From Bacillota bacterium (GTDB lineage: Bacteria; Bacillota; Clostridia; Acetivibrionales; DSM-1351): DNA of 32,000 bases. The number at the start of each line of letters is the position of its first letter. Positions within the stretch are counted from its first letter, which is position 1. Location of the stretch: assembly GCA_023460955.1 (NCBI GenBank), contig JAEWOH010000048.1, positions 79,346 through 111,345 on the forward strand. The letters are read 5' to 3'. Position numbers and translations under genes: made by a program. Shown here piece by piece: positions 5,501-26,481 of the stretch. Under the pieces are notes generated by a model that saw only the letters and a program-made list of their open reading frames with translations, did no database searches and was not told where the DNA came from.

Positions 5501-5652
5501 TTTACCTGCTTATAAAAATATTATATAATTTTGTCTGTTGTATAAATATAAATTATTTGTATAATTAGATATTATATAATATTTTTTTATTATGAGTAAT
5601 CTGGACAAATGCTTAAAAAGCAAAGTTCCAATTTCCATACATGGAGGTTAAA

Positions 5653-6471
5653 ATGAGCTTTAAAAGACAAGAGTTAAAGGACGCACACCGGATTGTAATT
5701 AAGGTTGGAACATCGACATTAACATATGATACAGGAAAAATTAATTTTACAAGAATTGATAAGCTCGCAAGAATTATTTCAGATCTTTCAAACCAGGGCA
5801 AAGAGGTAATACTTGTTACTTCGGGTGCCATAGGCGTCGGTGTAGACAAGCTTAAGCTTCCCGAGAGGCCGAAAACCATACGTGAAAAGCAGGCTGTTGC
5901 TGCAGTAGGGCAATGTGAGCTTATGCACATGTATAGCAAATTCTTCTCAGAATATGGTCATATTGTAGGTCAGATTCTATTGACTAGAGATATTGTCGGT
6001 GATGAAAGCTGCTGTAAAAATGTTGTTAATACATTTGAAACTTTATTGGCTAAAGGAATTGTGCCGATTGTTAATGAAAACGACTCAGTATCAATTGTGG
6101 AGCTTAAGGTAGGGCAGATTGATACCTTTAGTGAAAATGATACTCTATCGGCTATTGTTGCAAAACTTATTCGTGCTGACTTGCTGATAATTCTATCGGA
6201 CATAGACGGGTTTTATGACAGTGACCCAAGAAAAAATCCAAACTCAAAAATGTTATCAGTTATTGAGGACATTACACCTGAAATTGAATGTTGTGCAGAC
6301 GGAGCTGGAACAAAACGCGGAACAGGGGGAATGGTAACTAAGCTCAAGGCGGCTAAAATTGCCACTAAAGCCGGCGTTAACGTAGTTCTTACAAACGGCA
6401 GTTACCCTGAAGCAGTTATGAATATAATTAATGGGGATGAAATTGGTACTGTTTTTGTTGGAAGGGAATAA
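5653..6471 (+). CDS. proB: Glutamate 5-kinase (short form, no PUA domain)
   Basis: RIVIKVGTSTLT..., LVTSGAIGVG and GTGGMVTKLKAA are amino-acid kinase / ProB signatures. The ORF opens at 5641, but GGAGG at 5643-5647 favours ATG 5653. Confidence 0.9.
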   Translation: MSFKRQELKDAHRIVIKVGTSTLTYDTGKINFTRIDKLARIISDLSNQGKEVILVTSGAIGVGVDKLKLPERPKTIREKQAVAAVGQCELMHMYSKFFSEYGHIVGQILLTRDIVGDESCCKNVVNTFETLLAKGIVPIVNENDSVSIVELKVGQIDTFSENDTLSAIVAKLIRADLLIILSDIDGFYDSDPRKNPNSKMLSVIEDITPEIECCADGAGTKRGTGGMVTKLKAAKIATKAGVNVVLTNGSYPEAVMNIINGDEIGTVFVGRE

Positions 6472-6523
6472 TTATTACTTGATTGCACCACACAAAATTA
6501 AATATAGAATTTAATATAATAAA

Positions 6524-6551
6524 TAAAAACCCCGCCACAGCGGGGTTTTTA
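6524..6551. terminator. Bidirectional rho-independent terminator between proB and the PBP gene
   Basis: ccccgc (6530-6535) pairs with gcgggg (6540-6545), flanked by an A-run upstream and a T-run downstream. Confidence 0.8.
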
Positions 6552-6595
6552 TTTGTATTGTTCTAAATATACATAATTAACCAATATTATCTTTC

Positions 6596-9145
6596 TTACG
6601 GTATTGTTTCCATTCCGTCGTCCGGCTGCTTTTCAGGTATATTTGTAACAGGTGCCGTAGGCTTTTGAGGTCCTTTTGACGCTCCGTTATTTTGCAACGG
6701 TGACGGGTTAATAGGCTGTACAGTTGAAGAGCTGTGGATTGTACAGTATTCTTCCTGAGGTACCTCGTACATCCAGTCCTTGATTTGTGCGGCAAGTGAT
6801 TTATCACTTGGATCCTTTGGCAGGTATGGCACAGGACGCTTTATAAATACCTTTTCCTGAACAAGTGCCGGAGGACAATAAGGTCCAGCCAACAAAGGCC
6901 TGCCATATAAATCTTTACTTGATATATCAACCTTTGCGAGTACGTGAACGTTACAGAAATCGGTACTGCTTGGTTCAGTACCCTTCACAAAATATTCAGA
7001 GGTTAATCTGCTTCCTCTCGGATCATTAGCACAATTTGGTCCCGGTACCTTTCCCGAATCCACACACACAGTTTTCTTCACAATGTTTTCAGGCATCGGG
7101 TTAAAGTTCTTCACATCAAGATTTGAATGTATACGGTTCATAACTTTATTCCACAGTAAAAGTGCTTGGTTCCACTCGGTTTTCTTAAGTGATTTTGGAG
7201 TATTATAGCCATACCAGGTTGCACCTACATAGTAGGGGGAGTAGCCAACAAACCACTTATCCTTATAATCATTGGTGGTACCGGTCTTACCTGCCGAAGG
7301 AATTGTTTTCCCAGACTTGTTTTTAATCTGTCCATACCGGAGGCCGTTACTACCCGGAACTGCTCCTGCAGCAGTTCCGTTTGTAACAACGTCCTGGAGC
7401 ATGCTTGTCATTATAAAGGCGGTACTTTCCTTGTAGGCGACATTGCTTTCCTGCTCCTGCTTTTTATCCAGAAGCACATTACCCTTATCATCGGTTACTT
7501 TTGTATATGCAATAGGTTCCAAATACATACCCTTATTGACAAACGGAACATATGCCGACGCCATAATAAGAGGATTTACACCCTCATTAAGACCTCCGAG
7601 AGCCATGGAAACATAACCCTCCTTAGGTCTGTCTATATGAACCTTTTTCAAATATTCCAATGATTTACCAGCACCCAGATAATCTCTGAACAATAAGGCC
7701 GCAACTACGTTCTGGGATTTTGTAATAGCTTTTCTTACAGTTAATAAACCTTGATAAGTTCCGGACTCGGCATTTGTAGGATATGGTGTTGTGGGTTTTG
7801 TATTATCCATATAAACCGGCACATCATCCACAACGGTTGCTGCTGTGAAAAGACCGGTATCTATACCCGGAGCGTAAACTGCTATTGGTTTAAAACTGGA
7901 GCCGGGCTGTCTGTGCATCAGCTCGGAGGCCGCTTTATTTAGTGTAAAATTAGCTGTTTTTTGACCGTATCCCCCATACATTCCGCGAATCTGGCCGTTG
8001 TTAGGATCGAGTACCAGCATGGCTCCCTGGGCCTGCATATCAGGATTGCTTATCTTTGCATTTGCAGGGAAGTTGTTTATGTTTGTAAATTCCTCAGTCA
8101 TTATTTTTTGAACATTGGAATCCTGAGTAGTATATATCTTCAAGCCGCTGTTGTATATTTTAATGCTGGCAGCATCGCTTGAAAGGTTATACTGCTTCAT
8201 AAGGTCTTTCTTAACTTGGGTCAGCACATAGTCAACAAAGTAGCTCTGTACATTTGTTACCTTTTTTGTTTCTTCATCCTTGGGCTGATAAAATTTTAGC
8301 TTTTCGGCTACAGCTTCGTCATATTCATTCTGGCTGATGTAACCCTGCTTAAGCATTTCTTTAAGAATAATTTCCTGACGATCTTTATTTCTATTTTTGT
8401 TTTTTTCACTAAGTGTCGGGTCATACAAGCCCGGTGATTTGGTTATTCCGGCTATGCAGGCACATTCTGCAAGTGACAGATCATCTACATCCTTATTAAA
8501 GAATTTCTTTGCTGCGGCCTGAACACCATAAACACCAGAGCCGGTAGTAATACGGTTCATGTAGTTGTCAAGTATCTGGTCTTTTGATAGAACTTTTTCA
8601 AGTGCCATGGCCTGCCAGGCTTCCTGAACCTTTCTTTTTATTGTTGACTCTTCATTTCCTGTAATATTTTTTACAAGCTGCTGAGTTATTGTACTACCGC
8701 CATAAGAGGCATTACCAAAGGTAATTATATACTCGAAAGCAGCTCCTACAAAACGTTTAATGTCCATACCATTATGTGTTTTAAAACGTGAGTCTTCAAT
8801 AGCAATAAAAGCATTTCTCATATTATCGGGTATTTCTGAATGTTCAACCAGCACTCTGTTTTCACTACCCTTTATCTGGGCTATTTCGTTTCCATCTTTA
8901 TCATATATGAAAGAGGTAAGCTTCGTTATATCCAGCTGATCGGGAGTTATTTCAGGAGCATTTTTTACATAGCCAAATACAGCTCCTCCTAAAATTCCAC
9001 CAAAGACACACCCTAAAGATATGAGGATAACCATTACTGTCTTAATAACTGCAAGTGTAAATTGAACATAAGGAGAAGAACGTTTCTTTTTCTTCTTCAC
9101 CGGCTGCTCTTCATTACTTTTTGCAGCTTTTTCATTAGGTCTCAT
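6596..9145 (-). CDS. Class A penicillin-binding protein (PBP1A family transglycosylase/transpeptidase)
   Basis: GT51 motif EDSRFKTHNGMD. Transpeptidase motifs SSFKP (SxxK) and KTGTT. N-terminal basic tail plus TM helix. Start set at ATG 9145 (MRPNEK...) because AAGGAGG lies 5-6 nt upstream. Confidence 0.9.
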   Translation of the reverse strand: MRPNEKAAKSNEEQPVKKKKKRSSPYVQFTLAVIKTVMVILISLGCVFGGILGGAVFGYVKNAPEITPDQLDITKLTSFIYDKDGNEIAQIKGSENRVLVEHSEIPDNMRNAFIAIEDSRFKTHNGMDIKRFVGAAFEYIITFGNASYGGSTITQQLVKNITGNEESTIKRKVQEAWQAMALEKVLSKDQILDNYMNRITTGSGVYGVQAAAKKFFNKDVDDLSLAECACIAGITKSPGLYDPTLSEKNKNRNKDRQEIILKEMLKQGYISQNEYDEAVAEKLKFYQPKDEETKKVTNVQSYFVDYVLTQVKKDLMKQYNLSSDAASIKIYNSGLKIYTTQDSNVQKIMTEEFTNINNFPANAKISNPDMQAQGAMLVLDPNNGQIRGMYGGYGQKTANFTLNKAASELMHRQPGSSFKPIAVYAPGIDTGLFTAATVVDDVPVYMDNTKPTTPYPTNAESGTYQGLLTVRKAITKSQNVVAALLFRDYLGAGKSLEYLKKVHIDRPKEGYVSMALGGLNEGVNPLIMASAYVPFVNKGMYLEPIAYTKVTDDKGNVLLDKKQEQESNVAYKESTAFIMTSMLQDVVTNGTAAGAVPGSNGLRYGQIKNKSGKTIPSAGKTGTTNDYKDKWFVGYSPYYVGATWYGYNTPKSLKKTEWNQALLLWNKVMNRIHSNLDVKNFNPMPENIVKKTVCVDSGKVPGPNCANDPRGSRLTSEYFVKGTEPSSTDFCNVHVLAKVDISSKDLYGRPLLAGPYCPPALVQEKVFIKRPVPYLPKDPSDKSLAAQIKDWMYEVPQEEYCTIHSSSTVQPINPSPLQNNGASKGPQKPTAPVTNIPEKQPDDGMETIP

Positions 9146-9254
9146 AATATCCTCCTTAACTTTCTGAATAACAGTTGTTCTCAATATTATACCACAGTAG
9201 GAAAAGAGCCGCAACAAATTGCCTTGTCAGCAGGTTTCAAGCTAGTTTGTAATA

Positions 9255-9290
9255 TTATTAAACCCCGGTCCACATATGTGAAACGGGGTA
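9255..9290 (-). terminator. Hairpin downstream of the bactofilin gene (possible terminator)
   Basis: accccg (9262-9267) pairs with cggggt (9284-9289), enclosing the inner palindrome cacatatgtg. A T-rich tract follows on the minus strand. Confidence 0.4.
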
Positions 9291-9304
9291 AATAAATTAA
9301 CTGA

Positions 9305-9730
9305 TTAGGACTCCTCTTCGCCGGCAGCTGCACTTTTTCTGAAGTCCTTTTTCTTTCCCAATAAAATTGGTTTAGCCGCGGGGGCTTCAAGCATTTTGCA
9401 ATTCCCCTCAAAAAGACTTCCTTCTTCACAGACAAAGGATTTTACCTGAATGTCTCCAACTACCCGTGAGGTTGATAAAAGCTTGAGTAAGCCTGATGTA
9501 AATACGTTTCCTTCTATGGTACCTGAAACGTGAATATTTGAAGCTGACACATCGCCTTTGATTACTGAGGCATTCCCCAGATACAAATCACCTTGAATGA
9601 TGACATTCCCTGTTACCTTACCATCAATTCTCACAATTCCCTTGGAGTTTATATCACCCTTCATCTCAGTGTTTGTACCTATAAGAGTGTCAAATGTGGC
9701 TTTCTCGTAATCTGTTTGCTTTTTAAACAA
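9305..9730 (-). CDS. Bactofilin (polymer-forming cytoskeletal protein)
   Basis: Repetitive beta-helix pattern G.V.I.G.V.G.. throughout (GIVRIDGKVTGNVIIQGDLYLGNASVIKGDVSASNIHVSGTIEGNV). TTG start with a GGGGG RBS. Confidence 0.85.
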   Translation of the reverse strand: MFKKQTDYEKATFDTLIGTNTEMKGDINSKGIVRIDGKVTGNVIIQGDLYLGNASVIKGDVSASNIHVSGTIEGNVFTSGLLKLLSTSRVVGDIQVKSFVCEEGSLFEGNCKMLEAPAAKPILLGKKKDFRKSAAAGEEES

Positions 9731-15775: not shown

Positions 15776-17170
15776 ATGGTAATTAAAATGAAGCAGGCTT
15801 CGCAAAATAAATTTTCCCGCTCTAAGGTTTATCAACTTGAAATTACAGGACTTACTCATGAGGGACAGGGAGTAGGTAAGATAGAAGGTTTTGTAGTATT
15901 TGTAGATTCAGCTCTTCCGGATGAGACAGTAACGGTCAAAATTATCAAAGAAACCAAAAGTTATGCAGTAGGAAAGCTTATTGATGTAGTTAAACCATCA
16001 CAAAACAGAGTTAAGCCCTTCTGTCCGGTTTTTGATAGCTGTGGAGGCTGCGCAGTTCAACACATGAACTATCAGACACAGCTGGAGTTTAAAAAAGATA
16101 CCGTCCTTCAGAATCTTAGAAGAATAGGCGGGTTGGAGAATATTATAGTTCATGACACCATTGGCATGCCCAGCCCTTTCAGGTACAGAAATAAGGTTCA
16201 ATATCCTGTAAGTCTTCAGAATAAGCAGGTTCAAATAGGTTTTTATGAAAACCGTTCTCATAATATAATTGACAGTACAGAATGTGATATACAGCCCGAG
16301 GAAAGTAATGTGATTAGAAGTCTTATAAGGGACTTCTGCAGCAGCAATAAAATAAGTATATATGATGAGGCCACAGGCAAGGGTCTGCTGCGTCATGTAA
16401 TGGTCAGGAAGGGCTTTAAGACAAATGAGCTAATGGTAGTGCTGGTAGTAAACGGTCAAAAACTGCCAGGTTCGGACAAGCTGGTACAGATACTGACTCA
16501 AAAATACCCGAACCTTAAAAGTATAATGCTGAATGTGAATACAAGGAATACAAACATAATTCTTGGAACAAAGAATGTATGTCTGTTTGGACAGAAATTT
16601 ATTTCGGACTACATAGGCAAATATAAGTTTAATATTTCACCGTTGTCCTTTTTTCAGGTCAACCCGGTTCAAACTGAGGTTTTGTACCGTAAGGCGCTGG
16701 AATATGCCCAGCTTACAGGAAACGAAAATGTGTTTGATCTGTACTGCGGAATTGGAACTATTTCATTGTTTTTATCCGAGAAAGCAAAGAAGGTTATTGG
16801 TGTGGAAGTAGTTCCTGAGGCAATAGAGGATGCCAAAGAAAATGCAGCTCTGAATAATATCACCAACACTCAGTTCATAGTGGGAGAAGCAGAGGTTGTG
16901 ATACCAAAGCTATACGCTGAGGGCATCAGGGCAGATGTGGTAGTGGTAGATCCACCTAGAAAGGGCTGTGACGAGGTGCTGCTCAATACACTTGTTGAGA
17001 TGAAGCCTCGGCGTATAGTGTACGTCAGCTGTAACCCGTCCACGCTGGCACGGGACCTGAAGTATCTGCACCTTCACGGGTACGAAGCCCGTGAGGTGCA
17101 GCCGGTGGATATGTTCCCGTGGACGGGGCACGTTGAGACGGTAGCATTGATAACAAGGGTAAAAGAGTAG
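15776..17170 (+). CDS. rlmD: 23S rRNA (uracil-C5)-methyltransferase, RlmD/RumA family; chimeric 3' end
   Basis: N-terminal TRAM domain, Fe-S cysteines (CPVFDSCGGCAVQH), SAM motifs (DLYCGIGT, VVVDPPRKG), and C-terminal DMFPWTGHVETV. GC content jumps at about 16.9 kb (see findings). Confidence 0.9.
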   Translation: MVIKMKQASQNKFSRSKVYQLEITGLTHEGQGVGKIEGFVVFVDSALPDETVTVKIIKETKSYAVGKLIDVVKPSQNRVKPFCPVFDSCGGCAVQHMNYQTQLEFKKDTVLQNLRRIGGLENIIVHDTIGMPSPFRYRNKVQYPVSLQNKQVQIGFYENRSHNIIDSTECDIQPEESNVIRSLIRDFCSSNKISIYDEATGKGLLRHVMVRKGFKTNELMVVLVVNGQKLPGSDKLVQILTQKYPNLKSIMLNVNTRNTNIILGTKNVCLFGQKFISDYIGKYKFNISPLSFFQVNPVQTEVLYRKALEYAQLTGNENVFDLYCGIGTISLFLSEKAKKVIGVEVVPEAIEDAKENAALNNITNTQFIVGEAEVVIPKLYAEGIRADVVVVDPPRKGCDEVLLNTLVEMKPRRIVYVSCNPSTLARDLKYLHLHGYEAREVQPVDMFPWTGHVETVALITRVKE

Positions 17171-17225
17171 GGGTTTGCAAAGCCCAGTATATAAACCGTT
17201 TGTGTGTTTTTGCATTTAAAAATAA

Positions 17226-17282
17226 GGGTATGAAAAATGTGATTATTTTGCTTCGTGGGAACATATCGAGACGAGCCATTAA
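17226..17282 (+). pseudogene. Degenerate duplicate of the rlmD C-terminal coding end
   Basis: Reading from 17226 gives GYEKCDYFASWEHIETSH* versus GYEAREVQPVDMFPWTGHVETV... in the intact gene. Order is conserved for G,Y,E,D,F,W,H,E,T, and a stop lies immediately upstream. Confidence 0.3.
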
Positions 17283-17286
17283 CCTA

Positions 17287-17406
17287 GTGACAGAGCGATT
17301 TAGATGTCGGTGCTTGGTGAGTGGTCAATATAGATATCAGAGGTTTGTGAGTGGCCGATTTAGATGTTTCTTTTAGGGGAGAGTAGGTTAGATGGCATTT
17401 ACGGGC
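17287..17406. repeat. Four imperfect direct repeats with 30-bp phasing (21-bp core GTGAGTGGYCRATWTAGATRT)
   Basis: GTGA (GGGA in the degenerate fourth unit) occurs at 17287, 17317, 17347, 17377. TAGAT occurs at 17301, 17331, 17361, 17389. Units 2 and 3 match at 17 of the first 21 positions, and units 1 and 3 share gatttagatgt. Confidence 0.65.
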
Positions 17407-17481
17407 CAATTAAAGTAGTGTTATTATAAAAATGTTGAAAACATCTCAAACATTAAGGTGGATGTAATGGCCCTTTTTTTC
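17403..17481 (+). terminator. Terminator-like structured element ending in GGCCC plus T7
   Basis: gggccaatta (17403-17412) pairs with one bulge to taatggccc (17465-17473). Inner hairpins atgtt/aacat. T-run at 17474-17480. The loop is long, so this is uncertain. Confidence 0.35.
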
Positions 17482-17508
17482 GACGAGATCCTTACTACAA
17501 GATATAAC
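17479..17508 (+). promoter_or_regulatory. Possible sigma-A type promoter of the cargo operon
   Basis: TTCGAC (17479-17484), 18-nt spacer, TATAAC (17503-17508). GGAG RBS at about 17520, 8 nt before ATG 17532. Confidence 0.25.
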
Positions 17509-17531
17509 ATAATATAAATGGAGTTGGTACA

Positions 17532-18647
17532 ATGCGTAGCGATATTCCTTCGCCATTAAAGAAAAATGCTTTATGTGATTTTCTTAATAAAATCTGGTCT
17601 GAAGGGTGGTTTAATGATTTCTCTGATAGCCACTTTATAATTCAAGCTATGGAAAATCGAATAAATGGTTATGTTGGAGAAAACCAGTTAAAAGAGAATA
17701 ATTTTAATATTTTTGATTTCAATGATAATTTTGCTTTGAACTTCTCGATCAATCTTTCAGCCAAACTATATCATCTTACAAAAATATTTGGTGAACAAAA
17801 CATAAAACGATTTGTTCAGGATCAGCTGTCAGCTGGAAAGGCACATTATGAAGAAGATCAATTTTTTCGTGCACTTTCAGAAATAAGTATTTTAAAATAC
17901 TTTGGGACTTTTGGACCGGACGTCTTTTCAAATGCTATTTATGAGCCACCAGTTGGAAAAAATGGGAGAAATCCAGAAGCAAGGTTTATCTACAAGGACG
18001 GCACTATCGTAGATGTTGAAGTAAAAACGCCGGGTTTTAAGCATGAACAGTATACTGAGAAAATTATAATTCCTACGCTTTTATTGGATGCAGATGGTAG
18101 AGATATTTTAAACCGCTATTGTCAGGAACAGAATGTTCGTTGCATACTTCCAAGAGTACATAAACTTATTGACTTTTTGAATAATGCAAACGAAAAATTC
18201 ATTACACCTATGGAGGACAATCACATTAATTTGCTGTATATAAATTGGACATATAGCGAATTCCCATCAAATAGCTTTCTAGAAGCATTTTCTTTGCTTG
18301 CAAATTCTCACAATGGAATCTTAACGAATAAAAAAATTGGTATTTCCATGGGGCTTCAGGAAAGTGTTTATGAGAAAATTTCTGCAGTAATCGTATATAC
18401 GGATTCGTTGAACGGCCTTGTTTTTAATGATTTTAGGTATTTATGGGCATTACGCAATTTTGCAATTATTCCAGTTAATCGATCGGATAATAAATTGCTG
18501 AGGATAACAGATATGGATTATAAACGAAATCCTGTGCCACCACGCTTGATGGTAGATTTTAAGTCGAAAAAATTGGAAGAACAAGCTGAAGCCGCAATGC
18601 TTTCTGTAAATATGATGCGAATAATTGAAGAACACATTCTGAAATGA
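17532..18647 (+). CDS. Hypothetical protein with putative PD-(D/E)xK nuclease core (cargo gene 1)
   Basis: 371-aa ORF. Motif NPEARFIYKDGTIVDVEVKTP (P148-E149 ... D161-x-E163-x-K165; nt 17973-18026) is preceded by the helix FFRALSEISILKYF. I recognise no other family signature. Confidence 0.6.
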   Translation: MRSDIPSPLKKNALCDFLNKIWSEGWFNDFSDSHFIIQAMENRINGYVGENQLKENNFNIFDFNDNFALNFSINLSAKLYHLTKIFGEQNIKRFVQDQLSAGKAHYEEDQFFRALSEISILKYFGTFGPDVFSNAIYEPPVGKNGRNPEARFIYKDGTIVDVEVKTPGFKHEQYTEKIIIPTLLLDADGRDILNRYCQEQNVRCILPRVHKLIDFLNNANEKFITPMEDNHINLLYINWTYSEFPSNSFLEAFSLLANSHNGILTNKKIGISMGLQESVYEKISAVIVYTDSLNGLVFNDFRYLWALRNFAIIPVNRSDNKLLRITDMDYKRNPVPPRLMVDFKSKKLEEQAEAAMLSVNMMRIIEEHILK

Positions 18648-18687
18648 ATATTCTGATTTATAAATATATTAAAAGGACTTGAGTACA

Positions 18688-20562
18688 ATGGAAGAGAAAA
18701 AGTATACACAAAAAGACTTTATGATAGAATATGAAAACACAAGGTTGAAAGAATTAGGAATAGATATAGAAAAAGATGAGTACTATAAGCATCCTAAATT
18801 TATTGAGTTGAAAAAGGGATATATCAGTGAATTTAAGCATTTTGTGACTGAAGCTTGGTGGATAGAAAAGAATATCGTAGGGCAAGAAAGATTAAAAAAA
18901 ATATATGGTATATATGCATTTGGGATTGAGGCAGAGTTAGATGAAAAAGAATTACAGGATATTGCATTGTATACCGCTTTAGCAGATAAATATCCTGAAA
19001 AGTGTAGGAATGAAGCTGATGTACGAAAATATTTTAATAGAAATGAACATTCTGAAAAGAATGGTGACAAATTAGGTTTGATAGCAAGGCTAAAAGAATG
19101 GGGATTCGATATAGAAGCATTTCCGGAAAGCAAAAGAGAAAGAATAAAATTATTGTATTTTCTATATTGTGTGGAAAATGAAAACAGAATGCTTCTTTCA
19201 CAGTTTTTAAAAAATCCTACGTTAGAGAATGTAGATAATGGATTTATTGGACATGTAACTAAAAATGGCGATATTATGTCAGAGATAAAACGAACTATTG
19301 CGAGAGAGATTAATCCAGAGTACATATATATGTTAAATGGAACTATGCTAACAATAGCACAAGAATGGGAAACCCAGATTCAACGAGTAATGTTAGCTGT
19401 GGATTTTTGTGATAACAAAACTAAATTACAAGATTTAGAACGGATGAATGAATATGTTAATATTGTAGCTAATATGGTTTGTCAGCATCCTGATAAATGT
19501 GGATATTATGAAGATACCTTATTAGAAACATTCTTATTGAAATTATCGCAGCATGAATATATCGGAATTGAGAATGACATTTTGGATATTGCAGAAATTG
19601 CAACGGATATACCAGAAGTTACTATTTCATATAGACCGCAAAGATATATAGAATTAGCATTTGAGACTGTGGCTAAGGACGCTGTAAAATTATATATAAA
19701 GGAAAATCGAAGAGAATTAGCCCAATTGGTGTTTGAAAAAGACAAGATTACTGGTAGTGACTATCAGAAGTTTGATACAGCTGCAGCAAAAGCTGAATAC
19801 TGTATTGATATATTTCATGCAAATACTTTTATGCGACAACACAATAATATTACTAAGTTATTAGTACTTGTAATCATACAGGAAATTGTGAGGCTAGATA
19901 GGAAAGAAATAATAGAAAATAAGTTTTATCGATATGAAAGAAATGATCAAAAGACACTTAATACAGAAATTATGAATTCTACAAGTGCATTTCGAAAAAA
20001 TCAATTTGCATGGATAGCTAAAGTTATGAGAAGGTATAATTTATATAAGGGGAAAAAGAAGGAGACTGTTCTCGCCAAAACAATAGAAAAAAACATAGAT
20101 AGAATAATGATTAAGATTTTTAACTGCAATTCATTAAATGGTATGATTTGCGTTCATAATTATGTAATGATATGGCTGGATGCAGTTTTTGTAGATTCTC
20201 AAATTGTTTTGAGAGACTTCAATACATTTAGAGAGAAAATATATAAAAGGAACGGATTTAATGTAGCGGTTAACTCGTTTAAGGCCCAAATGTTTTTTGG
20301 TACAAGTGTTAATTCCGAAATTCCGTTATTACTCGCTAATGTAATAATAGATAAAATTGAGGAAATGATTTCACTAGGCGAAGATGAAATGGTAATAAAA
20401 TGGCCGATTGGGATGGAAGATAATTATTTTCACGAGGAGGAAGAATTTTATATAGTAACAATTATAGATATCAAAAATAAGGAAGTTACTATATCAGATT
20501 TTGAAGCCGATCCTAAAGGGAAATATAGAGAGCGGCTTATAACAAACGGGATACCAATATAA
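18688..20562 (+). CDS. Hypothetical 624-aa protein, no recognisable motifs (cargo gene 2)
   Basis: Long clean ORF. ATG 18688 with RBS aaaagga 10 nt upstream; the ORF track opens at TTG 18679. No Walker A/B, helicase, HNH, HEPN or TM signatures seen. The C-terminus is acidic and beta-rich. Confidence 0.7.
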   Translation: MEEKKYTQKDFMIEYENTRLKELGIDIEKDEYYKHPKFIELKKGYISEFKHFVTEAWWIEKNIVGQERLKKIYGIYAFGIEAELDEKELQDIALYTALADKYPEKCRNEADVRKYFNRNEHSEKNGDKLGLIARLKEWGFDIEAFPESKRERIKLLYFLYCVENENRMLLSQFLKNPTLENVDNGFIGHVTKNGDIMSEIKRTIAREINPEYIYMLNGTMLTIAQEWETQIQRVMLAVDFCDNKTKLQDLERMNEYVNIVANMVCQHPDKCGYYEDTLLETFLLKLSQHEYIGIENDILDIAEIATDIPEVTISYRPQRYIELAFETVAKDAVKLYIKENRRELAQLVFEKDKITGSDYQKFDTAAAKAEYCIDIFHANTFMRQHNNITKLLVLVIIQEIVRLDRKEIIENKFYRYERNDQKTLNTEIMNSTSAFRKNQFAWIAKVMRRYNLYKGKKKETVLAKTIEKNIDRIMIKIFNCNSLNGMICVHNYVMIWLDAVFVDSQIVLRDFNTFREKIYKRNGFNVAVNSFKAQMFFGTSVNSEIPLLLANVIIDKIEEMISLGEDEMVIKWPIGMEDNYFHEEEEFYIVTIIDIKNKEVTISDFEADPKGKYRERLITNGIPI

Positions 20563-20572
20563 AGATTCAACT

Positions 20573-20630
20573 AAAAGCCAAAGAGTGTGATCTGTAAGGA
20601 TCATTCTCTTTGGCTTTTTATTATTTTGGA
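20573..20630 (+). terminator. Rho-independent terminator of the cargo operon
   Basis: Perfect 13-bp stem: aaaagccaaagag (20573-20585) pairs with ctctttggctttt (20606-20618). Inner palindrome tgatc/gatca. T-rich tail. Confidence 0.75.
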
Positions 20631-20730
20631 TGAAAAGTCTACGGCTAAGTGGTAACGAATTACCAGATTTAATATGTTATCTTATATTCATCGTTGGAAA
20701 GATATTTAGCGATAAGGAGGTGAATGTGTT

Positions 20731-20859
20731 ATGGCTTCATATATTGATGAAGATGAATTGGAATGCCGAGTTTGTGGTCATATAGGCATGCTACTAAATG
20801 GGGATTGGACAGTTGAATGTCCATCATGTGATGCGGAGTATAGTTTAATAGATGAATAG
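20731..20859 (+). CDS. 42-aa zinc-ribbon protein (below ORF-track size cut-off)
   Basis: AAGGAGG at 20714-20720, 10 nt before the ATG. Translation is MASYIDEDELECRVCGHIGMLLNGDWTVECPSCDAEYSLIDE, with CxxC...CxxC. Confidence 0.5.
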   Translation: MASYIDEDELECRVCGHIGMLLNGDWTVECPSCDAEYSLIDE

Positions 20860-20879
20860 GGAAATAAGAGATAGAAGGG

Positions 20880-21218
20880 ATGAAATTTATGAAATGCGAG
20901 AATATTTTTATTGAGTATGAACCATCAGATACTATTGAGAAGCAAGGAAAAAGGGGCGATATTCAGAAATATCTGAAAAAAGGTTATTATATCAAAGAAG
21001 AAAGAAATGGTTATTGGGTCTTAGTCAAAAGTTCAAAAGTAATTATTAATATTAGTAATTCTTCAGGAAATTGGACTTTTGACATAAAGCAAGATATACT
21101 TGATTTTTATGAAAAAAAGAAAATTTCTGAGAAATTAGTTGAAAAGTTCAAGCAGGATATTAAGGATGATAAGGTCAGTATATATATGGATGAAAAAGGT
21201 AATTATGATATTAGGTGA
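20880..21218 (+). CDS. Hypothetical small lysine-rich protein
   Basis: 112-aa ORF 20 nt after the zinc-ribbon ORF. ATG 20889 has better spacing to GAAGGG than ATG 20880. No family recognised. Confidence 0.55.
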   Translation: MKFMKCENIFIEYEPSDTIEKQGKRGDIQKYLKKGYYIKEERNGYWVLVKSSKVIINISNSSGNWTFDIKQDILDFYEKKKISEKLVEKFKQDIKDDKVSIYMDEKGNYDIR

Positions 21219-21321
21219 ATAAGGTTAACGGAAAAAAATATATTGGCAGCGCAGATATATGTAAATGTACGAATTAGTTTCCAAAGATGAAAACATCAAT
21301 TTATGTAAATCAATATAGATA

Positions 21322-21366
21322 AAAGGAACAAACCGTTTAGTCTAAAGATCTGCGGCTTGTTCCTTT
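21322..21366 (-). terminator. Terminator hairpin directly after the serine recombinase stop
   Basis: aaaggaacaaaccg (21322-21335) pairs with cggcttgttccttt (21353-21366). The one mismatch becomes G-U in the minus-strand RNA. A T-rich tail follows on the minus strand. Confidence 0.55.
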
Positions 21367-21369
21367 AGG

Positions 21370-22941
21370 TTATTCTTCCACGTCCACCGCAACGCCGGAC
21401 TTAAATTCCACGCTAAATCTGTCCTCATAGACGGTGACCTTTTCAATCAGTCGCCTAACAAGCTGCTCATCGTATTCGGTAAGAGTGGTAGGCTGCTCCT
21501 GCAGGAATGAACTCATGTCGGAAATTCGTTTCCTCAGTTCATCCCGTCCGGCGCTTTCCAGCTGAAGCTTCTGTTTTTCCTCGCGAAGATGGTAAATTTC
21601 ATCGCCAACTTTCTCATAATCGGCCTTGGAGCTGGCGAGCTTCAAAAGCTCGGCTTGCAGCTCCGACAGTCGTTCATCGATACCAGCCAGAGCATGATCA
21701 TTTCCGTGAGTTAAGACGGTTTCGATATTATTCTGCAGGGTCACAAGGAAGGAGTCCTTTCCGCAGAGCGTTTTATTTATGGCGGTAACCATTAGCTGTT
21801 CGATTGTGCTTTCCAGCACCGTTCGGGCATCGCAATATAATCCGGTGTTTTCTAACCTGCTGATGCAGCGCCAAACAACCGACTTTTTACCTCGGTTGTT
21901 CCAATGAATCCTGCGGTAAAACTCGCCGCAGCCTCTGCAAATAATCATGTTCGAGAAACAGTGAATGCTGCTGAAGGTTCGATTCTTCCCGTTCGGGCTG
22001 GTATGGACAATGCGGCGACGGATGAGTTCCTCCTGCACCTGCATGAAAATTTCTCGGGGGATGATGGCTTCATGGCTGTTTTCCACATAATACTGTGGAA
22101 CGATGCCATGGTTCTTTACCCGCGTCTTTGTGAGGAAGTCCGTGGTATATGTTTTCTGCAAGAGCGCATCGCCTATATATTTTTCATTACGCAGAATCTG
22201 GTTGATGTTGCTGGTGTGCCACTTTTCATGGCCTGCACCATTCAGAATACCGTCGGCCTCAAGGCCTCGGGCTATTTTCAACATACTGGCGCCTTCGAGG
22301 TATTCCCGGTAGATGCGCTTTACGATTTCAGCTTCCTCGGGAACAATGACCAGTCGCTTATTCTCATCCTTAGTGAATCCCAGAAACCTATTGCAATTAA
22401 CTTGAATTTCCCCTTGTTGGTATCGGTATTGCAGCCCCAGCTTTACGTTCTGACTCAGGGACTGGCTTTCCTGCTGGGCAAGAGATGCCATAATGGTGAG
22501 CATGACTTCGCCCTTGGAGTCCATGGAGTTGATGTTTTCTTTTTCAAAGTACACGGGGATGCTTTTTTCTTTAAGCTGCCGGATATACTTCAGGCAGTCC
22601 AGCGTGTTACGGGCAAATCGGCTAATGGACTTTGTGATGACCATATCAACATTGCCCGCCATGCACTCATCAATCATGCGGTTGAATTCCTCTCGCTTTT
22701 TGGTGTTGGTGCCAGAGATGCCGTCGTCGGCATAGATTCCTGCCAGCACCCAGTCCGGATGACCGTTTATGTAGGCAGTGTAGTGCTCAATCTGTGCTTC
22801 ATAGCTGGTGGCCTGTTCGTCGCTGTCTGTGGAAACCCTGCAGTAGGCAGCTACCCGCAGTTTAGCTTTTTCCTCATCTTCTTTATTTCCTCTGGCATTC
22901 TTCCTGGCTGGGAGCACAGTGACGTTTTTCTTTACATTCAC
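21370..22941 (-). CDS. Large serine recombinase (resolvase/invertase N-domain plus recombinase plus zinc-ribbon domains)
   Basis: Catalytic region [16 protein letters not shown]...ISRFARN, recombinase domain, and Cys-rich CRGCGEFY...WRC zinc ribbon. GTG start 3 nt after the upstream stop, with a GAGGTG RBS. Confidence 0.92.
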
Positions 22942-22944
22942 AAT

Positions 22945-23358
22945 TTACACCTCGCTTTCTATAAGACTGTAGGCATATTCCGCCTGCTGGAAGGGGTCGT
23001 CGAACTGTTTGGTACCCTCTTTGATGCGGAAGGCAGTGGGGAAGACGACCGCAGTAGCTTCTTTTGGTTCATGTATACGACCGAGCTTTATAGCCCGCTT
23101 GACGCGCTCAGCTTCAGCTTCGGTAAAAATTTCTGATTCAATAATTGCTGGGTAGTACTCATCACCGAGGTAATGCTTATTCCGGAGCATCTTTCCTATA
23201 GCCGCATGGGAGGTTAGGATTCCTGCCTTTTGGGATGCAGTCGCCAAGGAATCACCTGAAAGGTAAGCCTGAAATAGAGACTTTATCTGTTGGGCAGCAA
23301 GCTCATCTATCTCGGCTTTGCCGTTTTCTATCCGATAGCCATAGGGTGTGTGGCCCAT
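22945..23358 (-). CDS. Recombinase-domain-only protein (no catalytic resolvase domain)
   Basis: MGHTPYGYRIENGKAEIDELAAQQIKSLFQAY...KMLRNKHYLGD matches the segment after the catalytic domain of large serine recombinases (compare SSPYGYDAVDGELFVNEQQAEIVRFIF in the 24910-26481 protein). It lacks the RVST catalytic serine region. Confidence 0.7.
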   Translation of the reverse strand: MGHTPYGYRIENGKAEIDELAAQQIKSLFQAYLSGDSLATASQKAGILTSHAAIGKMLRNKHYLGDEYYPAIIESEIFTEAEAERVKRAIKLGRIHEPKEATAVVFPTAFRIKEGTKQFDDPFQQAEYAYSLIESEV

Positions 23359-23488
23359 TCATCTCACCAGCCTCGTATTATATAGTCGTAGTTATTTATA
23401 TCCCTCGCCAAGGATATGTAATATACTGTTTAAGATACTGTGGATTAGTTTCACCTACCTACCACTTTGATGGTTAAAGAAAGGCTCT

Positions 23489-23579
23489 AACCACAGTCTC
23501 TTTGTTACTTTGTTAATCAGTTAGATACCGCATGACGGTTTATTTAGAACGAGGTTACAACTGCAAAGAGCACTGTGGT
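23489..23579 (+). ncRNA. Structured element in the IS110 left end (candidate bridge/seek RNA segment)
   Basis: aaccacagtctctttg (23489-23504) pairs with caaagagcactgtggt (23564-23579) with one bulge, enclosing ~60 nt with the inner hairpin ccg-catga-cgg. It lies 5' of the transposase. Confidence 0.3.
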
Positions 23580-23616
23580 CCTAAAACAGTATCAATTTAT
23601 TTCAAGGAGTATTTGA

Positions 23617-24792
23617 ATGATATACGTAGGAATTGATATTTCTAAGGATAAGCATGACTGCTTTATCACTAACTCAGATGGAGAAGTGCTATTCAAAGTT
23701 TTTAACATCCAAAACAATCTTGAAGGGTTCAATTACCTTTTTCAAAGAATTAAATCCGTTGCATCAGATTTTGGCAAAGTAAAAGTAGGTCTTGAGGCCA
23801 CTGGACACTACAGCTACAATCTTCTGGGATTCCTTCTTGATAAAGGTCTGACCACCTTTGTTATCAACCCGTTACATACCAATCTTTACAGAAAAAGTCT
23901 AAGCCTTAGAAAGACGAAAACGGATAAAGTTGATGCCCGTACAATAGCTATGATGTTAATGTCTGATGTAAACCTTAAGCCCTACTCAGATACATCTTAC
24001 CACAATGAAGAGTTAAAATCACTAACTCGTTACCGTCTGGATAAAGTTCAGGAACGTGCTAAGCTAAAAACATCTATTTCAAGACTTGTTAACATTCTTT
24101 TCCCTGAATTAGAAAAGTTGGTTCCCACCTTACATATGGCTTCTGTCTATGCTTTGTTACAGGAATTCCCTGGTGCCTCTAAAGTAGCTACTGCTCATTT
24201 AACCAAGCTTACAAATCTTTTAAACGAATCTTCAAAAGGTCGCTATTGTAAAGACATGGCTGTTACTATCCGTGAAGCTGCTAGAACTTCCATCGGTTCA
24301 ATAATGCCAGCCAAGTCTCTAGAGATGAAGCACACCATTTCCTTAATTAAAGAATTAGATTCAGAAATTGATGATATCGAGGCTGAAATTAAATCTATTA
24401 TGGATGAAATATCTTCGCCGATACTTACTATTCCAGGGATCAATTATCGTATGGGAGCAATGATTATTGCCGAAATTGGTGATTTTAAAAGGTTTGATTC
24501 TCCTGATAAAATACTTGCATATGCAGGATTATCTCCATCAACCTACCAGTCAGGACAATTGGAATCCTCTTATTCTCACATGGAGAAGCGTGGTTCGAGA
24601 TATTTGCGCTATGCACTATTTAATGCTACCAAATTCGTTTGTCACTGGGATCCAACTTTTGTAGCATATCTTCAAAAGAAACGTAGCGAAGGTAAGCATT
24701 ACAATGTTGCAATCTCACATGCCGCCAAAAAGCTTGTAAGGGTTATCTACCATCTTGAGAAAACAAAGCAGGCATATATCAAAGCGGCTTAA
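23617..24792 (+). CDS. IS110 family transposase (DEDD N-domain plus Transposase_20 C-domain)
   Basis: MIYVGIDISKDKHD...GLEATGHY... N-terminal RuvC-like DEDD pattern. C-terminal IPGINYRMGAMIIAEIGDFKRFDSPDKILAYAGLSPSTYQSGQ. RBS aaggag. Confidence 0.9.
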   Translation: MIYVGIDISKDKHDCFITNSDGEVLFKVFNIQNNLEGFNYLFQRIKSVASDFGKVKVGLEATGHYSYNLLGFLLDKGLTTFVINPLHTNLYRKSLSLRKTKTDKVDARTIAMMLMSDVNLKPYSDTSYHNEELKSLTRYRLDKVQERAKLKTSISRLVNILFPELEKLVPTLHMASVYALLQEFPGASKVATAHLTKLTNLLNESSKGRYCKDMAVTIREAARTSIGSIMPAKSLEMKHTISLIKELDSEIDDIEAEIKSIMDEISSPILTIPGINYRMGAMIIAEIGDFKRFDSPDKILAYAGLSPSTYQSGQLESSYSHMEKRGSRYLRYALFNATKFVCHWDPTFVAYLQKKRSEGKHYNVAISHAAKKLVRVIYHLEKTKQAYIKAA

Positions 24793-24909
24793 ACTATTTC
24801 TTAATACTTCTTTTTGAGCACCTTAAAAGATGCTCTATTTGTCATGCAGTTTTCAAAGTTCAAATAAATCAATGAAATATTAAGTCATTTTTATTGTAAA
24901 ATATCATTT

Positions 24910-26481
24910 TTACACTTGACTTTTAATAGTTAGTCTTTCTTTTAATGTAATGCCGCATTTTAATTCAAATCCAATCTCTGTCCGGGAATATACAATAACC
25001 CGTTCTACAAATTTGTTGAAAACATCTTCATCAAAGCGTTTCAACATGGTCGCCTTGGTGGCATATTGCAGTAAGGTACTGACCTCACTTAAATGCTGGT
25101 TCCCACTCTGTAGTAGGCGGTTGATAGAATCCTTCTGACGTTTTAACAGATCAGCTTCCTGAAGCAGATTGTTGTTGCTTTTCTTGTAAACTACGCGGTC
25201 GAGATAGCCTTTGGTCATCAGATTGATTAGCACATTTTGCTGTTCAGTGTTTTCCTCCAGCTTTTTATCAATGTCTTGAATGCTCATGAGGCTATCGTCA
25301 GCATTCACATCTCGCAGGCCTATCAATAGAGGCTTCAGTACAGTTTGATGACTGAAGATAAGCTTGTTCATCATTGTGACGAAGGCATACTCAAAATCGG
25401 AATCCGGGACGTATTTCATAGAGCATTTTCTAATGTTTTCAATATGAGTGGAGCAGCACCATGCAATGTATTTGCTTCCGCTGGAGTGGGTTCGGCGCTT
25501 AAATGTGCCACCGCACTGACCGCAGATGATTTTCCCGGAGAAGGGGTAGCGGTTTAAGTATTTATCGCTGTACTTTTCTACACCCTTTTCCTTGGCGCGC
25601 TGCTCAATGATTTTCTGGGCAGCTTCAAAATCCTCCCGGCTAATAATCGCTGTATGATTATCTTTAACGTAGTACTGTTCTTTCGCACCATCATTTTTAT
25701 GCCTATTGTAGCAGGCATCAGTATAGGTCTTCTGAAAAATGACGTCACCGGTGTACTTTTCATTACTGACCATGCCTCGGATGGTCGTGGATGTCCAGCG
25801 TCCACCTTTCTTAGTGGGAATGCTGCGGCGGTTCAGCTCATCTGCAATCTTGTGAGTGCTTTTTCCAGACAGGAGCTCAGTAAAGATAAAACGGACGATT
25901 TCAGCCTGTTGTTCATTCACAAACAGTTCACCATCAACAGCATCGTAGCCATAGGGAGAAGACGCTATTTTGTAGGTACCGTTTTGGAATCGCCTTTGAA
26001 TGGACCATTTATTGTTCTCGGCGATGGAGGCTGATTCACCCTCGGCCAGTCCACTCAGGATTGACAGCATGAGTTCACTTTCCATTGACCCGGTGTTGAT
26101 GTTCTCGCTTTCAAAGTAGACGGAAATGCCAAGCTTGGTCAGTTTGCGAACCAGATCCAGGCAATCCATAGTGTTTCGAGCAAACCGGCTTATCGACTTT
26201 GTGACAATAAAATCTATTTTTCCTTGCTCGCAGTCGGCAATCATCCGAAGCAGCTCAGAGCGTTTTTCTTTCTTGGTACCCGTTATGCCCTCGTCATAAT
26301 AAAGCCCGGCAAACTCCCATGCCGGATTTGCCTTGATGTAGGATTCGTAATGGCTTTTCTGGGTTTCAAGACTAACCAGCTGATCGTTGTTGTCGGTTGA
26401 AACGCGGGCATAGGCAGCGACCCGCAGCTTTGAATACTTTACTTGGCCATTTGAATTTTGAGCGATTTTCGTTACTTTCAA
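24910..26481 (-). CDS. Large serine recombinase
   Basis: LRVAAYARVSTDNNDQ...ISRFARN catalytic domain, SPYGY recombinase domain, CGQCGGTF...WCC zinc ribbon, and coiled-coil C-terminus. TTG start with an AGGAGGTG RBS. Confidence 0.92.
   Translation of the reverse strand: MKVTKIAQNSNGQVKYSKLRVAAYARVSTDNNDQLVSLETQKSHYESYIKANPAWEFAGLYYDEGITGTKKEKRSELLRMIADCEQGKIDFIVTKSISRFARNTMDCLDLVRKLTKLGISVYFESENINTGSMESELMLSILSGLAEGESASIAENNKWSIQRRFQNGTYKIASSPYGYDAVDGELFVNEQQAEIVRFIFTELLSGKSTHKIADELNRRSIPTKKGGRWTSTTIRGMVSNEKYTGDVIFQKTYTDACYNRHKNDGAKEQYYVKDNHTAIISREDFEAAQKIIEQRAKEKGVEKYSDKYLNRYPFSGKIICGQCGGTFKRRTHSSGSKYIAWCCSTHIENIRKCSMKYVPDSDFEYAFVTMMNKLIFSHQTVLKPLLIGLRDVNADDSLMSIQDIDKKLEENTEQQNVLINLMTKGYLDRVVYKKSNNNLLQEADLLKRQKDSINRLLQSGNQHLSEVSTLLQYATKATMLKRFDEDVFNKFVERVIVYSRTEIGFELKCGITLKERLTIKSQV

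Follow-up and report, generated by a model that had tools for sequence, protein, structure and literature searches.

The half-sites of site II in the Sin res site are arranged as direct repeats, the res site of Tn3 also acts as an operator, and integron attI1 carries two accessory integrase-binding repeats, DR1 and DR2. Large serine recombinases are prized for genome engineering, since a pair of short sites is believed to suffice for them, with no need for auxiliary DNA. The gene rumA (rlmD) is an established integration hotspot (PMC11578063), and in streptococci integrative and conjugative elements (ICEs) with serine recombinases are found at rumA, with the site inside the recombinase gene (PMC4701971). 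On arm repeats or accessory sites of serine integrases, and on paired prophage recombinases, nothing relevant turned up in the literature searched. Here we analyze a 32,000-nt stretch of DNA from a Bacillota bacterium of the Clostridia (GenBank assembly GCA_023460955.1, contig JAEWOH010000048.1, nt 79,346 to 111,345; the whole stretch is called the window), in which an array of short direct repeats lies between rlmD and the variable cargo slot of a prophage with two large serine recombinases, LSR1 and LSR2. Comparison with other loci shows that the repeats occupy a set position in the P' arm of the attachment site by which serine-recombinase elements target rlmD, and that they appear to be selected at the level of the DNA itself.

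The array in the window consists of four plus-strand units: U1 (AGTGACAGAGCGATTTAGATGTC, nt 17286-17308), which is conserved in 82 arrays, U2 (GGTGAGTGGTCAATATAGATATC, nt 17316-17338), U3 (TGTGAGTGGCCGATTTAGATGTT, nt 17346-17368) and a degenerate last unit, U4 (TAGGGGAGAGTAGGTTAGATGGC, nt 17374-17396; family consensus GGTTGTGTGGTCAGGTTGGATGT). With the unit weight matrix described below they score 28.8, 26.5, 27.8 and 5.4 bits, respectively. An earlier sequence-only reading of this stretch had placed the starts of the repeats at GTGA (nt 17287, 17317 and 17347) and GGGA (nt 17377) and had located TAGAT at nt 17301, 17331, 17361 and 17389, and all of these positions are correct. Its claim of an exact 30-bp phasing holds for U1 to U3 and fails for U4: in the family the distance from U3 to U4 is ∼40-42 bp and includes a T-rich linker, and the window deviates because ∼13 nt of this linker are deleted here. 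Taken within the window alone, the array is a modest signal, only modestly above chance. The 23-mers of U1 to U3 are identical at 15-17 of 23 positions among themselves, and only at 10-13 of 23 to U4. The self-match at lag 30 (47-49 of 90) is in the top 0.06% of positions in the 32-kb window, but lag 30 ranks second among lags of 15-60 there and is not unique compared with other lags. Tandem Repeats Finder does not call the array at this locus, and blastn against GenBank phages gives no match. The reason to consider the array non-random is instead that the same array is found at the same position in 82 distinct sequences.

These sequences come from a first comparison set of 80 rlmD loci from other genomes and IMG/VR viral contigs retrieved with the repeat pattern, and from two further pattern scans that added 11 true viral and 97 metagenomic stretches; deduplication leaves 82 distinct arrays, so that the array is present in the same place in at least 82 distinct public sequences. 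A comparison of homologous loci had been proposed together with the sequence-only reading, and it shows that the array is conserved. The region at nt 17172-17372 is 70-85% identical directly 3' of rlmD in genomes where RlmD itself is only 55-73% identical, and IMG/VR viral contigs carry this region as well. The consensus over the 82 arrays is specific for each position in the array, i.e., each unit position has its own conserved flanks: U1 reads GTGACAGAGCGATTTAGATGTC or AAGTGGTCAGGTTAGATGTC followed by AGTGCTYGG, U2 reads GAGTGGTCRGKTTAGATGTCAG, and U3 reads GAGTGGWCGATTTAGATGT followed by the T-rich linker. Successive units are spaced by 30, 29-30 and ∼40-42 bp. The copy number is mostly four, with a range from one or two in diverged relatives to five. 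In nearly all loci the distance from a CAYGT junction, which precedes the rlmD stop by 40 nt, rightward to the array is 169-174 nt. The orientation of the array is constant, and a dozen or so bases past U4 the loci no longer resemble each other. Even the diverged subfamilies represented by loci L203, L204 and L273 keep the architecture. Judged from these alignments, the stretch from the crossover CA to the end of U4 (nt 17129-17396) is one conserved module of ∼270 bp. Several contigs contain two modules in tandem, each preceded by its own junction, which implies repeated insertion into an existing left junction.

To what extent the units are conserved can also be asked in 18 loci that were chosen via RlmD, LSR2 or the 137-aa protein p137 (see below), and not via the repeat. 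In these loci the TTAGATGT unit cores and the box, an inverted motif described below, are as conserved as the crossover core, and conservation drops to nothing past U4. Compared with loci in which the third codon positions of LSR2 are 49-58% identical, the identity is 66-83% for U1 to U3 and 70-82% for the core, against 52-63% for the intervening spacer and 45-52% for the sequence after U4, which is the alignment baseline. The protein-selected loci and the calibration against LSR2 thus provide evidence that points to purifying selection on the units.

The rlmD gene (rumA; nt 15776-17170, plus strand; Pfam TRAM and tRNA_U5-meth_tr), encoding a 23S rRNA U5-methyltransferase that is 85% identical in amino acid sequence to RlmD of Ruminiclostridium cellobioparum, is the target of the element. 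In viral contigs, the similarity begins inside the gene at CAYGTTGAG, and four classes of left flank, rlmD and three phage or element arms, all meet the common right side exactly 5' of CAYGT. By comparison, the crossover dinucleotide would be the CA at nt 17129-17130 (plus strand), the leftmost bases common to integrated and unintegrated forms. Immediately to the left is the left (B) half-site, motif M2 (GTGGATATGTTCCCGTGGACGGGG, nt 17105-17128, plus strand), which scores a median of 20 bits in a fixed register with a matrix derived from the P arm and gives a match in the window at nt 17108. To the right is the right (P') core half-site (CACGTTGAGACGGTAGCATTGATAAC, nt 17129-17154, plus strand), which also re-encodes the C-terminus of RlmD and is among the most conserved columns in the loci selected independently of the repeat. 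Unoccupied rlmD ends differ after CAY/GT, and a single element occurs in an integrated (L091) as well as an unintegrated (L092) form. From the hybrid junction and this pair of loci it follows that the element carries a version of the final ∼40 nt of rlmD (nt 17129-17170). As far as the alignments tell, this element-supplied end puts the gene back in frame and at the same time acts as the right half-site of the core.

The unintegrated forms are symmetric around the CA, with GACATCAA ... TTGATGTC on the two sides. Specifically, the unintegrated phage arm ends with AGACATCAAyCTGATGCTATCGnGC and mirrors the right side, ...GTATTGATGTC, and in class B contigs attP shows ∼50 bp of imperfect inverted symmetry, GACATCAAyCTGATGCTATCGnGC/CA/yGTTGAGACGGTAGTATTGATGTC, where the slashes enclose the crossover. 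There are two further types of left arm, one of which adjoins the 3' end of a ∼310-aa serine recombinase gene. Recombinase genes, a hybrid junction and a symmetric attP are all found, and by these marks the junction in the window classifies as the attL of a large serine recombinase. The attR end of this prophage lies beyond the end of the contig, which is also the end of the window.

Between rlmD and the repeats lie two further parts of the module. A variable spacer (nt 17171-17246, plus strand) runs from the rlmD stop to the box; its length is conserved, its sequence is not (52-63% identity to other loci), and it includes a palindrome at nt 17170-17185. The box itself (nt 17247-17270; CTCGATATGTTCCCACGAAGCAAA on the minus strand) is an inverted copy of the M2 half-site that occurs at a fixed position in all loci, with a median matrix score of 22 bits. 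The fact that the box is an inverted copy of the left half-site GATATGTTCCCGTGGACGG (nt 17105-17128) explains a perfect 11-nt inverted repeat between the coding region of rlmD (nt 17108-17118, GATATGTTCCC) and the box (nt 17257-17267, GGGAACATATC). What had been taken for a weaker fifth copy of the repeat near nt 17255 is in fact this different conserved motif, the inverted copy of the rlmD half-site GATATGTTCCC.

We also note that many assemblies break in or just 3' of rlmD (L016, L018, L026, L033, L038 and others). Such breaks fit repeated or mobile DNA at rlmD and may cause under-counting in genome bins. One locus, L126, contains a second phage-type left core, AGACATCAATCTGATGCTATCGAAC followed by CA, ∼190-250 nt to the left of the junction, and there it is joined to sequence with an inverted repeat unit, AAAACATCCAAATCGACCACTCAAG, and not to the usual right half-site.

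The repeat units resemble the core half-sites. Every unit can be aligned, with no gap, to the right half-site of the core (GGTGAGTGGTCGATTTAGATGTC versus GTTGAGACGGTAGTATTGATGTC). When a weight matrix built from 111 distinct units is run on 1.0 million background 23-mers taken from these loci, the half-site of the core, read in a single fixed register, falls in the top 0.016%. The two types of unit, GACAGAGC and GAGTGGTC, have their counterparts in two variants of the core, GAGACGG and GAGTGCG, and U2 of the window is identical to the window's own P' core half-site at 14 of 23 positions. On the other side of the crossover, the unintegrated phage arm has two to three direct copies of M2 at about -65, -107 and -140 to -148 from the crossover. 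A matrix made from these P-arm copies assigns 20 bits to the rlmD half-site and 22 bits to the box in inverted orientation, with a background frequency of ∼3e-5. The full attP thus extends over ∼450 bp, with half-site-like repeats on both arms. In the aligned sequences the arm repeats of attP are oriented symmetrically about the crossover; related to the half-sites and fixed in position and orientation relative to the crossover, they look as accessory sites would be expected to look.

What would such sites do? In our judgement it is about an even bet that repeats and box belong to an extended attachment site, as accessory sites to which recombinases bind. The module would then consist, in order, of the replacement 3' end of rlmD, a fixed-length spacer, the inverted box and three to five direct repeats, here four. 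Repeats and box would bind the element's own recombination proteins, LSR1, LSR2 and/or p137, and with the two to three matching repeats on the other arm a larger protein-DNA complex would form around the crossover and could set the efficiency or the direction of integration and excision, a function comparable to that of the accessory sites of resolvases or the arm sites of lambda integrase. A bound protein could also affect read-through into the cargo, which is conceivable because the array lies between rlmD and same-strand cargo genes that often leave no room for a promoter. A more specific version, in which an extended attP of ∼450 bp (two to three M2 copies on the left; an inverted M2 and three to five M1 copies on the right) replaces the textbook minimal site of 40-50 bp and is assembled by both recombinases and p137 into an intasome-like complex that determines direction or efficiency, is a tentative proposal that we hold to be possible and somewhat doubtful.

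The genes that would encode these proteins are found on the minus strand at the far side of the cargo. LSR2 (nt 21370-22941; Pfam Resolvase, Recombinase and Zn_ribbon_recom) faces the cargo and is followed by p137 (nt 22945-23358), a conserved gene for a protein of 137 aa that has only the recombinase (DNA-binding) domain, and then by LSR1 (nt 24910-26481), with the same three Pfam domains as LSR2. Beyond LSR1 are genes for a SHOCT protein, an amidase, a holin and tail proteins up to the end of the window, and this gene context places the repeats where the chromosome meets a prophage equipped with serine recombinases. The order is recurrent, and it is the most frequent one in loci with sufficient DNA: array, 1-4 kb of plus-strand cargo, and then LSR2, p137, LSR1 and SHOCT on the opposite strand. 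In many loci the array has a homologue of LSR2 (65-92% identity) at a distance of 1-4 kb. Among 27 viral loci selected for LSR2 (identity of at least ∼75%, with at least 0.7 kb of sequence past the gene), the array is present on the expected strand in 13; most of the remaining loci extend for less than 3 kb there, compared with the 3.9 kb of cargo in the window.

The p137 protein is related to the recombinases themselves, with BLASTP E-values of 2e-6 to residues 172-262 of LSR1 and 2e-5 to LSR2, and 9e-6 to region 152-253 of the NCBIfam CcrA model, far below the cut-off of that model; a phmmer search against the PDB gives nothing. The gene is seen across dozens of viral contigs, and its product, which is not a gene fragment, is 47-77% identical in other loci. 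It is a candidate for an accessory DNA-binding or directionality factor. In L010, L024 and other loci the gap between LSR1 and p137 is ∼3-10 nt, and in the window an IS110 element lies within nt 23359-24909, with its transposase gene at nt 23617-24792 (plus strand) between p137 and LSR1. This insertion probably splits the recombinase operon, and may have immobilized this particular prophage.

The cargo slot of the window (nt 17532-21218, plus strand) contains gene 1 (nt 17532-18647, 371 aa), gene 2 (nt 18679-20562, 627 aa), a 42-aa zinc-ribbon open reading frame (ORF) and a 112-aa ORF. No family of Pfam, PADLOC or NCBIfam matches either of the two genes or the 112-aa ORF. Relatives of gene 1 are numerous, and the closest of them (79%, 65% and 57% identity) have no gene 2 and are preceded by upstream regions of ∼100 nt without repeats; they are found beside RhuM-like genes or in a conjugative element, in the latter between a DUF5699 gene, just past a NikA-like gene, and a relaxase gene. 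The sole other copy of gene 1 with repeats is an identical fragment of the same strain. Since relatives of gene 1 are usually alone, the two genes may not form one system. A profile search of gene 1 against PDB sequences gives nothing. Its AlphaFold model (predicted local distance difference test 88.6, predicted template modelling score 0.90) has no significant match among PDB folds, the weak ones being mostly PD-(D/E)xK nucleases, and residues E138, E149, E163 and K165 are invariant.

Between U4 and gene 1 is a locus-specific leader (nt 17397-17531, plus strand), which matches none of the 289 fetched loci and therefore lies outside the conserved module. The sequence-only reading had described a hairpin of GGCCC and a run of seven T residues here. 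The sequence is present as described (GGCCC at nt 17469-17473, T7 at nt 17474-17480), but the structure lacks statistical support: the only stem of GGCCC is a long-range pairing with GGGCC at nt 17403-17407, and folding of nt 17395-17485 (z = -0.44) or of nt 17171-17485 (z = -0.45) is no better than that of shuffled sequences. A scan for promoters and terminators likewise found no terminator, and only weak promoter-like matches.

The gene that follows the array differs in ∼60 contexts. Together with the relatives of gene 1 that have no repeats, this rules out that the repeats are operators specific to gene 1 and gene 2, so that the earlier proposal of phased protein-binding sites survives for sites belonging to the element and not for operators of these two genes. 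In 58 of 60 distinct contexts the cargo opens with a gene on the strand of the array, in many cases 0-100 nt past U4, which makes it probable that the cargo is transcribed through the module. Elsewhere the cargo includes a CAP12/Pycsar-type TIR protein, a GGDEF protein, nucleotide cyclases, an AAA_15/21 ATPase, an HTH protein and a weak RES-domain match just under the Pfam cut-off, a content that by analogy is that of defence or 'moron' hotspots. On its far side the slot is bounded by a hairpin directly past the LSR2 stop (nt 21320-21369 in the window). When this far edge was searched for a partner site, only the LSR2 terminator hairpin was found; it is mostly AAGGCACTCTACG...CGTAGGGTGCCTT in other loci, differs in sequence in the window, and accounts for a weak Rfam match to 'Plastid-psbA-2' at nt 21320-21372. 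Whatever the mechanism, the ∼270-bp module is a sharp marker of a cargo hotspot at the 3' end of rlmD in Clostridia. Sampled cargo behind the marker comprises TIR, nucleotide-cyclase, ATPase, RES and nuclease-like genes, and with the marker one could search metagenomes for new defence genes and delimit prophages with precision.

The same crossover is used by other elements. A second arm family, to all appearances unrelated (L012, L025, L028, L035, L043, L048, L052 and L074), is found ∼170 nt past the rlmD crossover. It has the core CTGATGAC and a distal arm copy, ATAGATGACAT, just ahead of the cargo or the point of divergence, as well as a palindrome, AACCACTATATGTAGTGGTT, and A/T-rich runs. 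Here too, by alignment, the arm repeat tracks the core motif. With a third family, discussed below, at least three element families compete for one rlmD site. A different kind of arrangement is found in L114 (nt 400-2730), L184 (nt 6560-9370) and L109 (nt 5550-7860), where tandem modules contain a short-recombinase cassette in the order rlmD or phage arm, array 1, cassette, second junction, array 2. The recombinase of the cassette is of the serine type, ∼310 aa long and without a zinc ribbon. The cassettes start ∼20-35 nt past U4 at AATAGGCTAA and finish with AAATAGCCTAA, then a U4-like unit, then AAATAGCCTAA again; they are bracketed by a near-palindromic AATAGSCTAA, with the extra U4-like unit on the right arm. 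Past array 2, L114 has a Pycsar-like cyclase and a membrane protein.

Several observations weigh against the proposal that repeats and box are accessory recombinase-binding sites. The large serine recombinases studied so far need only sites of 40-50 bp and no auxiliary DNA (PMC3783163). The register of the matrix comparison was picked after the similarity had been noticed, and allowing for ∼50 registers the top 0.016% becomes p ∼0.01. The window's own core, a GATAAC variant, has a poor score with the unit matrix and is identical to the window's own units at 9-14 of 23 positions. The resemblance to the half-sites is moderate overall and could stem from duplication, not from a present function. 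The number of units varies from one or two up to five, and U3 or U4 has been lost to cargo in L032, L094 and L119. Part of the TTAGATGT conservation in the set of 82 arrays is imposed by the search patterns, and the set of 18 protein-selected loci, which avoids this bias, is small. Relatives of LSR2 with ∼70% identity mostly have no array in the available DNA, the exceptions being L273 and L203, in which the module is in the unintegrated configuration; a lag-autocorrelation search 3' of such relatives gave positive controls barely above noise. A third family at rlmD (L011, L015, L017, L040 and L088) has a recombinase gene directly 3' of rlmD and no array, and arms are therefore not a general requirement for targeting this gene. 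Finally, the same-strand orientation of the cargo fits a role in expression at least as well.

This last point leads to the alternative that the module is an expression platform or roadblock, with operator sites that gate read-through into promoter-less cargo; the regulator would be a phage or host protein, or the recombinases acting as repressors, and transcription would come from rlmD or from an unrecognised promoter. The module would then be similar to Tn3 res in its operator role, or to the Pc/attI region of an integron. The position directly 3' of the rlmD stop agrees with this, as do the orientation and closeness of the first cargo gene, which leave no promoter room, and a weak A-rich motif, TAAAAW, 8-13 nt past U4. 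However, there is no conserved -35/-10 pair of the sigma-70 type (at most 9 of 52 sequences share a candidate position, which lies 5' of the box), apart from the recombination module no regulator gene shows consistent linkage, and the window has 135 nt of unrelated sequence with the T7 run between U4 and gene 1. A purely transcriptional role would also leave the fixed distance to the crossover unexplained, the likeness of the units to a recombination half-site speaks against it too, and we consider the roadblock unlikely. That likeness would fit if the units were an evolutionary scar, i.e., functionless, decayed duplicates of the core half-site that arose by aberrant recombination or slippage and spread with the module: both codon variants of the rlmD end are represented among the units, the number of units varies, and U4 is degenerate in the window. 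A scar would not readily account for unit cores that are conserved like the crossover core while the intervening spacer is at baseline, for the conserved flanks peculiar to each unit position, or for an architecture that persists in L203, L204, L273 and, differently, in the second arm family, so that we regard this explanation as improbable.

Slightly less probable still is that the array, and especially U4, is a landing pad, comparable to integron attI and its accessory integrase-binding repeats, into which short (∼310 aa) serine recombinases insert cassettes by site-specific recombination. The break in similarity after U4, cargo that varies yet keeps its orientation, the cassettes of L114, L184 and L109 ∼20-35 nt past U4, and the contigs with two arrays in tandem could all be read in this way. 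Yet the far edge of the cargo is the LSR2 terminator hairpin and no partner site, cargo boundaries also occur after U2 or U3, and most loci, including the window, have neither a short recombinase nor the AATAGSCTAA motif; homologous recombination at a hotspot explains variable cargo between conserved flanks equally well. By far the least probable explanation, and one to which we give hardly any credence, is a repeat-derived small RNA, either a ToxI-like type III antitoxin or another RNA, that acts on a downstream nuclease-like protein. The sequence-only reading had suggested a ToxI/ToxN-like locus from the layout of tandem repeats, a T-run and a gene with a possible PD-(D/E)xK motif, and the fold matches of gene 1 are enriched in nucleases, none of them significant. 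The repeats are only 65-75% identical, however, and RNAalifold on 52 non-redundant modules gives -3 kcal/mol and six pairs of which none covaries, with nothing on the minus strand. Nt 17171-17531 have no Rfam match at E ≤ 5 and no terminator call, no ToxN or AbiQ family match is found, and the array is not linked to any particular downstream gene. We reject the ToxIN-like reading because there is no conserved RNA structure or promoter and because the closest relatives of gene 1 occur without the array. The known type III toxin-antitoxin loci (ToxIN, CptIN, TenpIN, AbiQ/antiQ) share with this locus the short tandem repeats 5' of a protein gene and the T-run in between; they differ in having near-identical RNA units of ∼34-45 nt, one toxin family and a real terminator, and none of these holds here, where the period is 30 nt, no toxin of the ToxN, AbiQ, CptN or TenpN type is present and there is no co-inheritance.

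Other candidates were discarded on simpler grounds. Replication iterons do not fit, as no replication gene is linked in any examined locus, where the neighbours are rlmD, variable cargo and recombinases. Indels of 1 nt between units across loci rule out a coding repeat. For a CRISPR remnant, a 30-bp period is by reasoning too short to hold a repeat and a spacer. The end of a Tn7- or Mu-like transposon is excluded by the lack of transposase genes and by recombinases of the serine type, and a pac or cos site or an origin by the gene order, since the module lies between the recombinase and cargo region and the chromosome junction.

The proposed accessory recombinase-binding sites can finally be compared with those of described systems. 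As in res sites II and III of Tn3 and gamma-delta and site II of Sin, there are extra sites beside the crossover that resemble half-sites and can be in direct orientation. In contrast to resolvase sites, the enzymes here are large serine recombinases, the reaction would be integration and excision instead of resolution, the binding is putative, and the sites are 120-270 bp from the crossover and on both arms, not adjacent to it. On the biological side the nearest analogues are the ICEs at rumA and the staphylococcal cassette chromosome (SCC, SCCmec), which has the paired large serine recombinase genes ccrA and ccrB, builds up in tandem and uses rlmH (orfX); in SCC and in the ICEs at rumA, as here, insertion occurs at the 3' end of an rRNA methyltransferase gene that stays functional. 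SCC differs in its target gene, and the elements considered here are prophages of Clostridia, a different host clade; for SCC and the rumA elements, neither a half-site repeat array nor a gene with the recombinase domain alone is described in the literature searched. The cargo slot in turn resembles the hotspots of P2 and P4, where a variable slot near the attachment site holds TIR, cyclase, ATPase and nuclease-like genes expressed in the lysogen, except that one flank of the slot is here an attachment arm with repeats and not a gene.

Besides the resolvase sites, the nearest analogues in mechanism are attP of lambda (P1, P2, P'1-3) and attI1 with DR1 and DR2, which like this locus are extended sites of several hundred bp whose arms carry direct repeats at a constant distance from the core; in attI1, variable same-strand cargo adjoins the site as well. 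Those systems use tyrosine recombinases with a separate arm-binding domain and have arm sites unlike the core, whereas here the arm sites are core-like and the enzymes are of the serine type, and the role that the arm-binding domain has in lambda may be taken by p137. If large serine recombinases do use such sites, they can also build regulated higher-order complexes, which would offer a new way to control the direction of recombination. And if the intasome-like version held, it would be the first case of an arm-type accessory system among large serine recombinases, comparable in layout to lambda and attI1 and coupled to an expression slot for defence genes.

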